64,000 bases of DNA from the NCBI GenBank assembly GCA_963749075.1, contig CAVVLJ010000004.1:416001-480000 (forward strand), given 5' to 3'. A program made the translations under genes and the position numbers. Shown piece by piece: positions 43,971-48,893 of this stretch. The notes under the pieces are model-generated. The model saw only the letters and a program-made list of their open reading frames with translations. It did not search any database and was not told the origin of the DNA. Source of the stretch: an uncultured Pseudomonadota bacterium (lineage in GTDB: Bacteria; Pseudomonadota; Alphaproteobacteria; JACZXZ01). How positions within the stretch are numbered: position 1 is the first letter of the stretch; each line of letters opens with the position of its first letter.

Positions 43971-44948
43971 ATGCTGCGCACGCTCGCCCGCCTGCTGAGC
44001 ATCGTGCCGGCCGTGGCATTGGCGGCCGCGGGGGCTGAGGCGGCCGAGCGGGTCGCCGCGGCGGTCGTCTTCGCCGTCGACGTCTCGGGCAGCGTCAATG
44101 CCGAGCGCTACGAGCTGCAGCGCGCCGGCATCGCCGGCGTCTTCGCCGATGCGGCGATCGCTGAGATCGTCGGCGACGGGCTCGCGGTCACGCTCATGGA
44201 GTGGTCGGACGGCCACGCGGTCTCGGTGCCCTGGACGATCCTCAGGAGTGCCGCGGACGCCGAGGCGCTGGCGCGCACCATCGCCCGGGTGCCGCGCGCC
44301 CCCGGCTACTCGACCGAGCTCTCGCTGGCCCTTCTCGCGGCGGCCGACCTCCTCGCCGCCTGTCCCTGCGAGGCGGCGAGCCGCATCATCGACGTCTCGG
44401 GCGACGGCTCGAACAACGGGCCCATCTCGACCCCGATCGCCCGCGACGAGGTGGTGGCGCGCGGCATCCGCATCAACGGGCTGCCCATCGTGACGCCGGC
44501 CGAGCCGGACCTCGCGCAATGGTACCGCGACAACGTGGTCGGCGGGGACGGCGGCTTCATGGAGGTGGCGAACGGCTACGAGGATTTCGCCCGCGCCATG
44601 CGGCGGAAGTTCCTCCTCGAGGTAGCAGCCCTGGGGAGCCGGCCGCGGCGGAGGGGACGGCCGAGAGTGCTGCGGCGAAGGAAATCGGTCGCCCGGAAGC
44701 GCCACGGGATTCGCGCAGATCCGAAGAGCAAGGGAGCCTCGGACCGGGTCCGGTGGGTCCTTCGAGGCGCTCGCTGCGCTCGCTCCCCCGGGCACTTCGT
44801 CCGGGGTGTTAAGTCCTTCCGCCACACACGGAATTGCCTTGTCCTGAGGAGCAACCCGAAAGGGTTGCGTCGCGAAGGACCCACGGCGGCGCTGCAATCC
44901 TCCTCGGTCCCTCGGGTAGTGGGTCATTTTGATTGGAATGCCGCTTGA
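43971..44948 (+). CDS. DUF1194 (VWA-like) exported protein; frame runs on through a repeat into the IS end
   Basis: AVDVSGSV, IDVSGDGSNN, INGLPI, RRKFLLEVA; domain ends near 44630. Confidence 0.8.
   Translation: MLRTLARLLSIVPAVALAAAGAEAAERVAAAVVFAVDVSGSVNAERYELQRAGIAGVFADAAIAEIVGDGLAVTLMEWSDGHAVSVPWTILRSAADAEALARTIARVPRAPGYSTELSLALLAAADLLAACPCEAASRIIDVSGDGSNNGPISTPIARDEVVARGIRINGLPIVTPAEPDLAQWYRDNVVGGDGGFMEVANGYEDFARAMRRKFLLEVAALGSRPRRRGRPRVLRRRKSVARKRHGIRADPKSKGASDRVRWVLRGARCARSPGHFVRGVKSFRHTRNCLVLRSNPKGLRREGPTAALQSSSVPRVVGHFDWNAA
44753..44884. repeat. REP/RIME-like inverted repeat, family D
   Basis: GTGGGTCCTTCGAGGCGC... / ...CCTGAGGAGCAACCCGAAGGGTTGCGTCGCGAAGGACCCAC. Confidence 0.75.
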
Positions 44949-45472
44949 CCGCACTTTAGGCCACCGTTGGCCAAAACACACAGGTAGGTCTGGCCAGTTT
45001 GGGTGTTAATTACCCATGCAGCAGTAACGGGCGAACTCGGAATATTGCTCAATTGCCAGGCGCCTACTGGGGCTGTCGTTGATTCCGAAGTTGCGGCGAG
45101 CGTTTCTATTTTCGGCAGTGCCGCCTCAGCGCCCCGGTTGCCGACGAGCCACGAGACGGCGGGCTTGGTATCAGCATCGATCGCCGTCCAGGTCCATAGA
45201 TCGCCAACGCCTGCATCGCCCTTCATGTGCTCGGGCACGTTCTTTTGCTTCGCGTAGCAGAACGCCCAAATTTCATCGACCTGCACCCGCTTGCAGGTGA
45301 GGTTGCGAAGCGCCTTGTCCTGGTACTCTGCACAAGCTTGGCCGGCGTCCACGAGGAGCTTGGCAACCGTGTTCTTGCTCGCCCCCGTAAGCCGAGTGGT
45401 GGCACGGATGCTCATTCCCTCGACCATCATGCCGAGGATTTGACCGCGGCGAGCAATGGGAAGTTTGTTCAT
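44924..45472 (-). pseudogene. Truncated IS1-family transposase fused to an unrelated 3' gene fragment
   Basis: EGMSIRATTRLTGASKNTV HTH, VQVDEIWAF and WTWTAIDADTK; similarity ends near 45120 before the remaining DDE residues. Confidence 0.85.
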
Positions 45473-45563
45473 ATGATTGCCAATGTCGTGAGTTATCGTT
45501 GACAACACTGCAGCGTAGGGTTTACAATGTATCAAGTTAAGTTTCTAATAGGAGAACTTAAAG

Positions 45564-46661
45564 TTGGCAATCGAACGCCGTAGCCGTCAAAACCCAGCCA
45601 TTCGTGAGTTCATTCTAAGGAATGTCGCGGGCTATCCAGGCAGCATAGTGGCTAGGACCGCCAAGGAATTTTCTATATCTCGAACGGCAGTCAATAATTA
45701 CATGCGAAATTTTATAAATAACGGATTGATAACGGCACAAGGAAAGACACTTGCGCGACGGTATAGACTTAAGTCGCTTGTCGACATTACTGACATAGTT
45801 AAAATAACACCAGGTATCTTCGAGAACGATGTTTGGAGAGAAAAAATATTACCTCACATTAAGGGAGTTAATTCTAGCATAGTAGATATATGTCAATATG
45901 GCTTTACAGAAATGTTCAATAACGTCATTGACCACTCTCAAAGCCCCGACGCAATGATTACCTATACGCAGACGTATGCCGATATACGCATATTTGTAGT
46001 GGATAACGGGGTCGGAATTTTTGAAAAAATACAGAAATACTTTAATCTCACCGATCCCCGTAGCGCACTTCTTGAATTGGCCAAGGGAAAACTCACTTCG
46101 GATAAGGCTAGGCATACCGGGGAGGGTATATTCTTTACGTCTAGAATGTTTGACATGTTTATAATTGACTCTGGACACTTATCTTATCAAAGAACGCGTC
46201 GTGATGACGATGACTGGCTTATAGAGACGCACGATATAATAAAATATGTCAAAGGAACTGTAGTAAGCATGACGATTTCAACAAATGCGTCTTGGACGGC
46301 AAAAAATGTGTTCGATAAATATTCTGATTTTATTGAGGACGATGGGGTGTCTGCGTTTACCAAGACGCACGTGCCAATCCTGCTCGGCAGATATCCTGGC
46401 GAACAGCTCGTGTCTCGTTCACAGGCAAAAAGAATCTTGTCTAGGTTTGATCGATTTTCGGAGGTGATGCTTGATTTCAGAGGGGTGCAACAAATCGGCC
46501 AGCCATTTGCTGACGAAATTTTTAGGGTCTTTGCGAATGAGCACCCACAGGTCAAGGTCGTCGCGATAAATACGAGTTCAGACGTTCAGCGGATGATTGA
46601 ATATGCGCGAGCGAACAACAGGCCGGCTAATACCGCTGGAATCTCTGATAGCCGCGATTAG
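45564..46661 (+). CDS. HTH + histidine-kinase-like ATPase + DUF4325 (STAS-like) passenger protein
   Basis: FTEMFNNVIDHS (N-box), VDNGVGIF (G1), HTGEGIFFTSR (G2), SRSQAKR...LDFRGVQQIGQPFADEIFRVF; visibly AT-rich. Confidence 0.85.
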   Translation: MAIERRSRQNPAIREFILRNVAGYPGSIVARTAKEFSISRTAVNNYMRNFINNGLITAQGKTLARRYRLKSLVDITDIVKITPGIFENDVWREKILPHIKGVNSSIVDICQYGFTEMFNNVIDHSQSPDAMITYTQTYADIRIFVVDNGVGIFEKIQKYFNLTDPRSALLELAKGKLTSDKARHTGEGIFFTSRMFDMFIIDSGHLSYQRTRRDDDDWLIETHDIIKYVKGTVVSMTISTNASWTAKNVFDKYSDFIEDDGVSAFTKTHVPILLGRYPGEQLVSRSQAKRILSRFDRFSEVMLDFRGVQQIGQPFADEIFRVFANEHPQVKVVAINTSSDVQRMIEYARANNRPANTAGISDSRD

Positions 46662-46831
46662 GTGTCTCGGCGATGAAGTGCCTTTCGGTGCTTGGTCGCG
46701 CCTGCGGATCGGCGTGAAAGTTCGTCCCTTTTCTCGTCTCTCTTATCCTCCACTTGCCCAGTTGCGATATCGACAATCAGCTTGCCGAGCTGTAGAGGGT
46801 CGCGGGGACGCGGGAGTCGCTTGGTGACCAT
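46658..46831 (-). CDS. 57-aa IS-associated small basic protein (PRDPxQL family), absent from the ORF track
   Basis: MVTKRLPRPRDPLQLGKLIVDIATGQVEDK...; stop overlaps the passenger gene's stop. Confidence 0.7.
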   Translation of the reverse strand: MVTKRLPRPRDPLQLGKLIVDIATGQVEDKRDEKRDELSRRSAGATKHRKALHRRDT

Positions 46832-46895
46832 GCTCGAAGTATGGCATGGCTGAGGTCGCTAGGCGATAGGGTCCAAAACTCAAACTGACCCACTA

Positions 46896-48801
46896 GTGCG
46901 CCAGGAAGCTGGCGTGATCCAGCCGGTGAAAGTCCGGCCCAGGTAAGGGGTAGCGCCCGCCTGGTAGCGAGTGTTGCGCTGTGGAAGGCAACGACCACGG
47001 CGAAGCGTACACAGCGATTGTGCGGGGTGGGCTATTGAGCCGCGTAAGCAGTAATGTCGGAGGGGCCGAGGCTTTTAGTGTAGCCGAAGGCAACATGTGC
47101 GGCGCCGCTATGCGAGGCGCCGTCGCCCTACCGAGGTCGAAGACCCCATCACGCACAAAGGGAGCCCGCCGGAACCTGGGAGATCCCACGTCCGGCCAGC
47201 GGCGACAAGCCGCCCTGGTCCGCATCGGGAAGGCGAGGAGCCGTAGCCGATGACGCACGGGCGCGGGAAGTCAGACTCCGCCATAGTAGCTGGGAAGCCG
47301 ACGAACAAGGCCGGGCAATCGGTTGCGGAGCCGGTGGAGCGAAGGGCGGAGGCCAAGGGGAATGCGGGCCAGCACAGCACGCGCCGGGCACAGGACCGGG
47401 AAAGCGTGTCCCATGCGCTGGATCGCATACGACAAGCGGCAAGGCAAAGGAAGAAGGAACGGTTCACCTCGCTCTTCCACCATATCACCATCAGCCTGCT
47501 CCGGCTGGCGTTCTTCGCGCTCAAGCGAGACGCCATGCCCGGCGTAGACGGGTTGACATGGCAGGACTACGAGGCAGACCTCGAGTGCAAGCTCGAGGAC
47601 CTGCACGCACGGGTCCGCCGGGGAGCGTATCGGGCACTGCCGTCCCGGCGACGGTACATACCGAAACCGGACGGCCGGCAGCGCCCGCTCGCCGTTGCCG
47701 CCCTCGAGGACAAGATCGTCCAACGGGCGACCATCGCGGTGCTGAACGCGATCTACGAGGAGGACTTCCTCGGGTTCTCGTATGGCTTCCGGCCACGGCG
47801 CGGCCAGCACGATGCGCTGGACGCACTGGCGGTCGGGCTCACCAGCAAGAAGGTGAACTACGTTCTCGATGCGGACATCCGGTCCTTTTTCGACGCGGTC
47901 GATCAAACATGGCTCGTCCGCTTCTTGGAGAACCGGATCAGTGACCCGCGTATCATCCGCCTGATCCAGAAATGGCTCAAGGCGGGCATCCTGGAAGACG
48001 GGGTCGTGACGGTGAGTGAGAGGGGGACGGGACAGGGCTCGGTGGCATCACCGCTCCTTGCCAACGTCTACCTGCACTACGTCTTCGACCTCTGGGCCGA
48101 GCGCTGGCGACGGCGCGAGGCACAGGGCGATATGATCATCGTGCGCTATGCGGACGACATCGTTGTCGGCTTCGAGCGTGAGGCCGACGCCCGACGCTTC
48201 TGGGAGGCGATGCGGGAGCGGTTGCAGGAGTTCTCGCTGACGCTGCATCCGGAAAAGACCCGCCTGATCGAGTTTGGCCGCCATGCCGCGGCCGAGCGCA
48301 AGCAGCGCGGGCTCGGTAAACCGGAAACCTTCAACTTCCTAGGCTTCACCTTCCTCTGCGGTAAATCGCGCCGCGGGAACTTCCTCCTCAAGCGGAAGAC
48401 CCGGCGTGACCGCATGGTGGCCAAGCTCAAGGAGGTAAAGGGCGAACTGCGGCGGCGGATGCATCAGCCCATCCCGGTGCAAGGGACGTGGCTGCGGCAG
48501 GTCGTCACCGGCTTCTTTGGCTATCACGCAGTGCCGACAAACTTCCCGGCACTTGCGGCCTTCCGGCGCCATGTCACCGGCCTCTGGCGGCGCACGCTCC
48601 GGCGGCGCAGCCAGAAGGACGGCTCGACCTGGGGACGGATCGAGAAGCTGGCCAACGACTTTCTCCCAAAACCCCGCATCCTTCACCCCTGGCCGAGCAA
48701 GCGCTTCGCCGTCAAACACCCGAGGTGGGAGCCGTATGCGGGAAATCCGCCCGTACGGATCTGTGCGGGGGGCGCCCAGTAATGGGCGTCCCTACCGCGA
48801 T
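46896..48801 (+). mobile_element. Group II intron (complete)
   Basis: 5' GTGCG; domain V GAGCCGTATGCGGGAAATCCGCCCGTACGGATC (48729-48761); domain VI hairpin with bulged A; 3' end AT. Confidence 0.93.
47250..48782 (+). CDS. ltrA: Group II intron reverse transcriptase/maturase (no endonuclease domain apparent)
   Basis: PGVDG, YIPKPDGRQRPL, SYGFRP, DADIRSFFD, GTGQGSVASPLLANVYL, RYADD, FNFLGF. Confidence 0.96.
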   Translation: MTHGRGKSDSAIVAGKPTNKAGQSVAEPVERRAEAKGNAGQHSTRRAQDRESVSHALDRIRQAARQRKKERFTSLFHHITISLLRLAFFALKRDAMPGVDGLTWQDYEADLECKLEDLHARVRRGAYRALPSRRRYIPKPDGRQRPLAVAALEDKIVQRATIAVLNAIYEEDFLGFSYGFRPRRGQHDALDALAVGLTSKKVNYVLDADIRSFFDAVDQTWLVRFLENRISDPRIIRLIQKWLKAGILEDGVVTVSERGTGQGSVASPLLANVYLHYVFDLWAERWRRREAQGDMIIVRYADDIVVGFEREADARRFWEAMRERLQEFSLTLHPEKTRLIEFGRHAAAERKQRGLGKPETFNFLGFTFLCGKSRRGNFLLKRKTRRDRMVAKLKEVKGELRRRMHQPIPVQGTWLRQVVTGFFGYHAVPTNFPALAAFRRHVTGLWRRTLRRRSQKDGSTWGRIEKLANDFLPKPRILHPWPSKRFAVKHPRWEPYAGNPPVRICAGGAQ

Positions 48802-48893
48802 CCGTCCCTCCCTGCCGCTTGAACTGGCGGGCACTCCGGGCGCACACTATTTGATCGTAGCGAGCCTCGGTCTCGTTCGTGCGCGGGTCAGCG

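Follow-up and report, generated by a model that had tools for sequence, protein, structure and literature searches.

Background

RmInt1 is a bacterial group II intron whose site lies within a transposase gene. Group II introns that target insertion sequences (ISs) are well documented in bacteria (PMC3522654), and for RmInt2 of Sinorhizobium meliloti GR4 it is reported that all copies reside in the inverted repeats (IRs) of ISRm17 and that retrohoming into these repeats was shown experimentally (PMC4615759; PMC5894124; PMC8496243). In this study we describe a group II intron that sits 2 nt inside the end of an IS1-type transposon of an uncultured alphaproteobacterium (GenBank assembly GCA_963749075.1, contig CAVVLJ010000004.1, positions 416,001 to 480,000 of the forward strand). 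This stretch of 64,000 nucleotides is called the window, and all positions without a further label refer to it.

Four pairs between exon-binding site 2 (EBS2) and intron-binding site 2 (IBS2) are reported to suffice for RmInt2, and the authors point out that the use of IRs doubles the number of targets and guarantees one of them on the lagging-strand template (PMC4615759). The intron of the window resembles RmInt2 in the lack of an endonuclease, in a natural target within the terminal IRs of an IS, in the apparent use of either end and in an EBS2/IBS2 pairing of four bp. It differs in that it seems to belong to another intron lineage, has an intron-encoded protein (IEP) of 510 aa and is known from sequence alone, whereas the retrohoming of RmInt2 has been assayed. 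The host IS family also appears to be a different one, with no Sinorhizobium among the 20 plasmid records that match the transposase described below. Among its hosts are miniature elements, transposons that carry passenger genes and numerous solo sites that resemble an IR. The family of ISRm17 is not stated in the literature examined.

With RmInt1 in ISRm2011-2 and E.c.I4 in IS3-like transposases, the intron shares the homing into multicopy ISs, a recognition by EBS/IBS pairing that is probably joined by protein contacts to the distal 5' exon, and an incomplete occupancy of the available sites (PMC3522654; PMC5894124). Its ribozyme is comparable, in features rather than by phylogeny, to the IIE and IIF classes as described earlier: it is compact and IIB-like with a 5-nt loop in domain V and with EBS1 and EBS2 in domain Id, the IEP has no endonuclease domain, and domains V and VI overlap the end of the open reading frame (ORF) (PMC3753933). 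Homing of group II introns into IRs is already known in kind from RmInt2, and the principle as such is not new. The literature searched yielded no report of group II introns at the ends of IS1-family or miniature elements.

Results

A group II intron two nucleotides inside a transposon end

Positions 46896 to 48801 hold a group II intron that is complete and encodes an intact reverse transcriptase lacking an endonuclease domain (Table 1). The intron begins with GTGCG and ends with ...CGAT. Domain I is matched from end to end by the Rfam model RF02005 at 46929-47146 (164 bits, cut-off 49, E 4e-48), and the covariance-model alignment shows a domain V loop of 5 nt (GAAAU). The ribozyme is compact, with about 354 nt ahead of the ORF. 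The IEP matches Pfam RVT_1 (E 4.2e-37) and TIGR04416 (334 bits, cut-off 300); beyond the reverse transcriptase/maturase, no endonuclease (HNH) domain was matched by the Pfam and NCBIfam models, TIGR04416 ending at residue 453 of 510. In this respect the protein agrees with the IEP classes A, C, D, E and F and with unclassified IEPs. The closest IEP relatives on plasmids are ltrA genes of Agrobacterium, Aminobacter, Sinorhizobium and others, with 65-76% identity. About 80 N-terminal residues ahead of the reverse transcriptase model are kept in relatives, as tblastn matches cover residues 1-510, and the reading frame passes through domain V and ends within domain VI.

If the intron is taken out, the exons rejoin to TCAAACTGACCCACTA↓CC (here and below, the arrow marks the insertion point or, at empty sites, its equivalent), the reverse complement of which is identical at 17 of 18 positions to GGTAGTGGGTCATTTTGA at 44915. 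These two repeats enclose a defective IS1-type transposon of 1,983 bp (44915-46895 together with 48802-48803), and the intron lies between bases 16 and 17 of its 18-bp right IR. When up to 4 mismatches were allowed, a search of the whole window found only the two IR ends and one site with 4 mismatches. The left IR, read outward, is AATCAAAATGACCCACTA↓CC and reaches 18.8 bits on the target matrix described below; an A at -11 breaks one EBS2 pair. A truncated transposase ORF next to this end shows, over its first approximately 140 residues, 63% identity to residues 13-140 of the 329-aa transposase of a second invaded element (C20, see below). It also gives an NCBIfam IS1 match below the curated cut-off (E 7.7e-12), and a Pfam search with this N-terminal remnant gave no match.

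A sequence-only reading of the same DNA had already put the intron 2 nt from the end of a transposon, had noticed that the rejoined exons mirror the other end, and had proposed TAGTG as EBS1. All of its coordinates proved correct: the intron boundaries GTGCG...CGAT are in agreement with the matches to both Rfam models, the 17/18 repeat is accompanied by a 7/8 direct repeat outside the tips, and the covariance model places TAGTG in a hairpin loop whose pairing is quantified in the next section.

Table 1 Features of the intron and its host transposon in the window
Feature	Position	Strand	Evidence or remark
Left target-site duplication copy (GTCCCTCG)	44907..44914	.	7/8 match to 48804-48811
Left terminal IR GGTAGTGGGTCATTTTGA, uninvaded	44915..44932	+	17/18 match to rejoined right end
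Truncated IS1-like transposase ORF, 203 aa	44924..45535	-	Similarity to C20 transposase; NCBIfam IS1
Passenger ORF, 365 aa, in the intron's orientation	45564..46661	+	Pfam DUF4325, E 6.5e-14
Inner 16 nt of right terminal IR (5' exon target)	46880..46895	+	IBS2 ACTG 46884-46887; IBS1 CACTA 46891-46895
Group II intron, IIB-like, 1,906 nt	46896..48801	+	Rfam RF02005 and RF00029
EBS2 (CAGT)	47049..47052	+	Pairs with ACTG 46884-46887 (exon -12 to -9)
EBS1 (TAGTG), hairpin loop	47076..47080	+	Pairs with CACTA 46891-46895 (exon -5 to -1)
EBS3 (G)	47139	+	Pairs with C48802, exon +1
Intron-encoded reverse transcriptase/maturase, 510 aa	47250..48782	+	RVT_1, TIGR04416
Intron domains V and VI	48727..48801	+	RF00029, 50.3 bits, cut-off 40
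Final two bases (CC) of right IR, separated by the intron	48802..48803	+	C48802 is IBS3
Right target-site duplication copy (GTCCCTCC)	48804..48811	.	7/8 direct repeat with 44907-44914

Reading of the repeat by the intron RNA

The hairpin GGCU-UUUAGUGU-AGCC carries the EBS1 sequence in its loop, and EBS2 is an internal-loop stretch after GAAAG, at which relatives carry the complement of their own exons. For the analysis of these pairings we used related introns with 72-81% IEP identity (80 loci), the boundaries of which were set by alignment. Nine loci with a 5' end that is not GTGCG-like or is misaligned (L020, L021, L027, L044, L064, L066, L088, L090, L091) were left out, as were loci missing a boundary or having less than 14 nt of exon, so that 61 rows remained, 58 of them distinct and the window included. 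In the distinct rows, the EBS1 loop and exon positions -1 to -6 form on average 5.66 of 6 pairs, compared to 2.78 after shuffling (maximum of 1000 shuffles 3.28). For the EBS2 stretch and positions -8 to -13 the mean is 4.19 of 6 (shuffled 2.60, maximum 3.03), and the register -12 to -9, read by eye from the alignment, is also found in the nearest subgroup (L029, L051, L063, L078). The EBS3 column (intron position 244) is in Watson-Crick relation to exon +1 in 60 of 61 rows, while the next best column reaches 0.56. The sole exception is L050, the 3' boundary of which was extrapolated from a shorter alignment (query positions 19-132) and is possibly miscalled. Since the partners of EBS1, EBS2 and EBS3 are all situated within the repeat, everything that the RNA reads lies inside the 18-bp IR.

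Further copies in the genome and in a congener

The genome contains three full copies of the intron with 1-3 nt differences in 1,906, all of them with an open ORF, and a 57-nt fragment of the 5' end. The intron looks active, and the near identity of its copies suggests that it has spread recently.

The copy designated C20 is preceded by ...GTCGAAACTGACCCACTA↓ and followed by CC. Its host is an element of 3,897 bp that begins with GGTAATGGTACAGTTTGA and is invaded at its right tip; besides the full-length transposase of 329 aa this element contains four further ORFs, and an exact 8-bp duplication, CGCGCGTC, borders it on both sides. The window and C20 elements each possess their own partner IR and duplication, they carry different cargos, and their transposases are 63% identical. 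The invaded end is upstream of the transposase in the window element and downstream of it in the C20 element, which suggests that both ends are open to invasion. The gene beside the invaded end reads toward the intron in either element. The third copy, C17, follows ...TTTCAAACGGTGCCACTA↓CC approximately 40 nt past a methyltransferase-like ORF and adjoins rmlA-D-like genes. The fragment (C16:1206048-1206104; L004/L097) comprises 57 nt of the intron 5' end after the IR-like sequence ...TTCAAACCGAGACTA↓; it starts directly after the stop codon of an ORF and is followed by unrelated sequence. In a congener, one contig begins inside the intron, which is preceded by ...TTCAAACTGAGACACTA↓.

A position matrix derived from intron 5' exons alone detects 16 sites of at least 16 bits in the own genome, compared to 2 in a reversed control, and the intron occupies 3 of the 16. 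At 8 of the 13 empty ones, the next two bases are CC, which the matrix leaves unscored. Both values fit a repeat family better than chance matches. In addition, there are three miniature elements of about 155 bp (C20:455400-455565, C17:650595-650752, C21:386428-386584; L098-L100) with tips resembling those of the IS1 type (GGTA(C/A)(T/C)G...CCCACTA(C/T)C) and with GC-rich, palindromic interiors; none of the three is invaded. A search for orthologous empty sites in five congeners permitted no dating of the insertions: the C17 flank had no usable match there, and the left flank in the window is a dispersed repeat.

The target motif at the ends of annotated IS1-family elements

We applied the same matrix to three annotated plasmid regions, from Mesorhizobium loti, Hoeflea sp. 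and Acidiphilium multivorum, which had been picked only by transposase similarity. Each region contains exactly two matches of at least 8 bits, and in each the matches are inverted around an IS1 family transposase gene, with 22.3-30.2 bits on all six ends of the three elements. All six ends are followed by CC, and all three elements (3,370, 4,224 and 2,634 bp) have an exact 8-bp duplication. In congeners, empty matching ends are likewise found beside IS1-like transposases. The empty ends in the own genome and in the congeners favour an interpretation of the solo sites as orphan ends of one repeat family.

IS1 elements typically have ends of the form GGnnnTG and generate duplications of 8-9 bp. 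The hosts described here end in GGTAGTG...CACTACC with 18-bp IRs, range from 1,983 to 4,224 bp with cargo ORFs, and are flanked by 8-bp duplications that are exact in four elements and 7/8 in the window element. The C20 transposase matches Pfam DDE_Tnp_IS1 (PF03400) with 33.8 bits (cut-off 24.1); the IS1 model NF033558 of NCBIfam is its best-scoring IS model, with 71.4 bits at a cut-off of 100. The closest homologues on plasmids, with 51-57% identity to it, bear the annotation IS1 family transposase. The long elements with passenger genes presumably resemble the ISMhu11-type subgroup of IS1 in ISfinder, its size range included.

Recurrence in metagenomes

Metagenome contigs were scanned for the exact 22-nt junction of the last 5 exon bases and the first 17 intron bases, which is present in at least 120 contigs. 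The 80 loci that were read represent 69 distinct 40-nt upstream contexts with the consensus ATTCAAACTGAGACACTA. The search imposed CACTA only, yet positions -16 to -7 are strongly conserved as well; farther upstream the contexts are unrelated to each other. In the 22 contigs that reach the 3' exon, it begins with CC in 18 and with C in 20, and the later bases are unrelated.

A context was taken to show an IS if it had an inverted partner with a score of 14 bits or more, or a tblastn match to an IS1-like transposase. Among contexts with at least 300 nt upstream, 15 of 58 have a partner IR or a transposase match, and the reversed-matrix control for inverted partners gave 1 match. Within these 15 contexts, only the transposase match of L170 spans most of the protein, the other seven being short fragments. 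L170 is a transposon of 3,552 bp with a perfect partner IR and a transposase match of 277 residues. L136 and L114 are elements of 690-810 bp that have no transposase, L164 and L167 show two repeats back to back, and L125 is a miniature element of 96 bp with the exact 8-bp duplication GAATACTC.

Some metagenomic copies have an altered structure. Four (L124, L157, L114, L168) are shortened to 636-1,240 nt by internal deletions and have lost the ORF, two (L174, L181) are lengthened to about 2.6-2.7 kb, and immediately after L160 another, different group II intron begins with its 5' end.

Limits of the specialisation

The relatives with an IEP identity of 72-81% differ in their EBS sequences, and their targets are unrelated. 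IS-end targeting as a trait of the whole clade was considered and rejected: among 49 relatives with at least 1.5 kb upstream, an inverted upstream partner (score of at least 13; reversed control at most 12) is present in only five (L012, L031, L035, L062, L073). Clustering of flank ORFs among the relatives revealed no protein common to more than 5 loci. The connection to IS1-type ends is a trait of the sub-lineage with the EBS1 sequence TAGTG and not of the clade. The suggestion of the sequence-only reading that the lineage is specialised for IS1-family IRs consequently holds for this sub-lineage but fails for its 72-81% relatives. Its two further expectations were borne out: close relatives with the same IBS1 recur in ...TTCAAACTGAGNCACTA↓CC (three copies and a fragment in the genome, one copy in a congener, at least 120 contigs), and the motif coincides with IS1-family terminal IRs, the matrix reaching 22-30 bits on both ends of all three annotated elements.

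Other sub-lineages among the relatives have targets of their own. One is found in different assemblies after ...GGGGTA(G/A)A(C/G)CGGA↓ and before AGT or AAT (L037, L041, L043, L045, L052, L059, L060, L067, L072, L079-L083, L085). In many cases this target forms the 3' arm of a hairpin, as in TCCGCTTT-CGGGGGT-AAAGCGGA, and neither an inverted partner nor a shared flank gene was found at these loci. Four copies of another relative in one assembly (L031, L033, L034, L035) are inserted in GTAGGGTGGGC↓AAATCGC, a sequence that recurs inverted 42-766 bp away on either side like a palindromic repeat of the repetitive extragenic palindromic (REP) type. At L045, L056, L062 and L088 the boundaries are 3.4-3.9 kb apart instead of the usual approximately 1.9 kb, which suggests an insertion inside the intron.

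Passenger genes and neighbouring sequence

The passenger of the window element belongs to DUF4325 (STAS-like) and in one region shows weak similarity to HATPases (HATPase_c_2, 21 bits, under the cut-off); it has no match in the PADLOC or NCBIfam models. A passenger of the C20 element (L006 3803-4429) is a DUF6941 protein. A comparison of the passenger ORFs of both transposons with the PADLOC defence models gave no convincing match, the sole one being weak (E 2.8e-4). Annotated relatives of the elements have helix-turn-helix (HTH)/XRE regulators and a RES-Xre toxin-antitoxin pair within or beside them. To the left of the window transposon, about 175 bp (44728-44907) are a dispersed repeat, of which each of the five congeners has 7-41 matches with 69-97% identity, so that the IS1-type element appears to have landed beside or in a repeat.

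Discussion

We consider it highly probable that the sub-lineage described here retrohomes, guided by EBS/IBS pairing, into the terminal IRs of IS1-family transposons. In the window, the intron would have entered the outward-reading strand of the right terminal IR. The repeat would be read by base pairing of EBS2 CAGT with ACTG (-12 to -9), of EBS1 TAGTG with CACTA (-5 to -1) and of EBS3 G with C (+1), while the other conserved positions (-16 to -13, -8, -7, +2) are probably recognised by the protein or are merely inherited from the repeat. The homing site of the sub-lineage would be identical to the IR consensus of one IS1-family group and its miniature derivatives (TTCAAACTGAGNCACTA↓CC), so that the intron could spread among such ends and their solo remnants. 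As there is no endonuclease, priming probably takes place from replication-fork DNA, in analogy to RmInt1 and as the work on RmInt1 and RmInt2 would suggest. Transcription might be supplied by read-through from transposon genes that point in the same direction. The geometry of the insertion, 1.9 kb at a distance of 2 nt from the cleavage point, should make the end unusable by the transposase, and the invaded end would thereby lose its function.

Several observations weigh against so close a connection to transposon ends. The pairing is short here, with 5 bp for EBS1 and 4 bp for EBS2. In each invaded element the left IR is free of an insertion, and at least one other site of the genome, at C17:250527, is likewise empty despite perfect IBS1, IBS2 and IBS3. 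The C17 copy in the rml sugar cluster has no partner IR within 13 kb. Of the 37 distinct metagenomic contexts that extend at least 1 kb upstream, 14 have IS evidence and 23 show no recognisable IS; for the 18 that extend at least 3 kb, the numbers are 6 and 12. Solo and IS-linked sites also have the same conserved positions, so that descent from IS ends is inseparable, on this criterion, from a plain sequence preference.

It is from these last points that the most serious alternative draws its support, namely that the intron merely prefers a sequence of about 18 nt for which IS ends are one place among many, most copies being ectopic and having no tie to a transposon. The 23 contexts that show neither partner IR nor transposase, the copy within a gene cluster for sugar biosynthesis and the identical conservation at both kinds of sites would all be expected in this case. 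However, a matrix derived only from the flanks of the intron finds both ends of all three annotated IS1-family transposons, and empty ends are located beside transposases in congeners. The own genome holds 16 high-scoring sites against 2 in the control, with the unscored CC of the tip at 8 of the 13 empty ones, and the hosts include miniature elements with duplications. We therefore regard a mere sequence preference as improbable.

Transport of the intron as cargo, with copies spread by transposition of intron-carrying elements, is very unlikely. The intron lies inside the outermost 2 nt of its element and could in principle travel along, but near-identical introns occur in elements with different cargos and transposases only 63% identical as well as at an element-free site, the 69 metagenomic contexts differ in their 5' exon surroundings, and EBS/IBS pairing accounts for the exact insertion point. 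A chance origin of the inverted repeat and of the EBS1 match, for which one could cite the mere 5 bp of EBS1 pairing and a loose 14-mer search of the genome (up to 3 mismatches; 82 matches, 163 in the control) that is uninformative at that stringency, is hardly conceivable in view of the 17/18 IR with its duplication, the replication in a second element, the covariation in 58 relatives and the recurrence in at least 120 contigs.

Beyond retrohoming into IS1-family ends as such, one could speculate that the sub-lineage is a long-standing and widespread hyperparasite of one IS1-family group and its miniatures, which kills the ends it enters and outlives its hosts. We put this forward only tentatively and would rather expect it to be wrong in this full form. 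The scarcity of long transposase matches and a majority of copies on orphan ends are what one would expect if an element, once invaded, can no longer move and decays while the intron within it stays mobile. If it were true, the intron would hold back this IS group in soil bacteria, and the target motif would mark the graveyard of the group.

Conclusions

The intron of the window very likely adds to RmInt2 a second case, independent of the first, of group II introns homing into IS terminal repeats, and both the intron lineage and the IS family appear to differ between the two. Its footprint is unusually clear, as all three elements read by the RNA fall within the 18-bp repeat. Metagenomes from soil and peat commonly contain the intron, which indicates that this habit is no curiosity of one Sinorhizobium strain. 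It may offer a natural system in which to ask if introns of this kind hold transposons in check, and by what means a retroelement survives the decay of the DNA transposon that hosts it.

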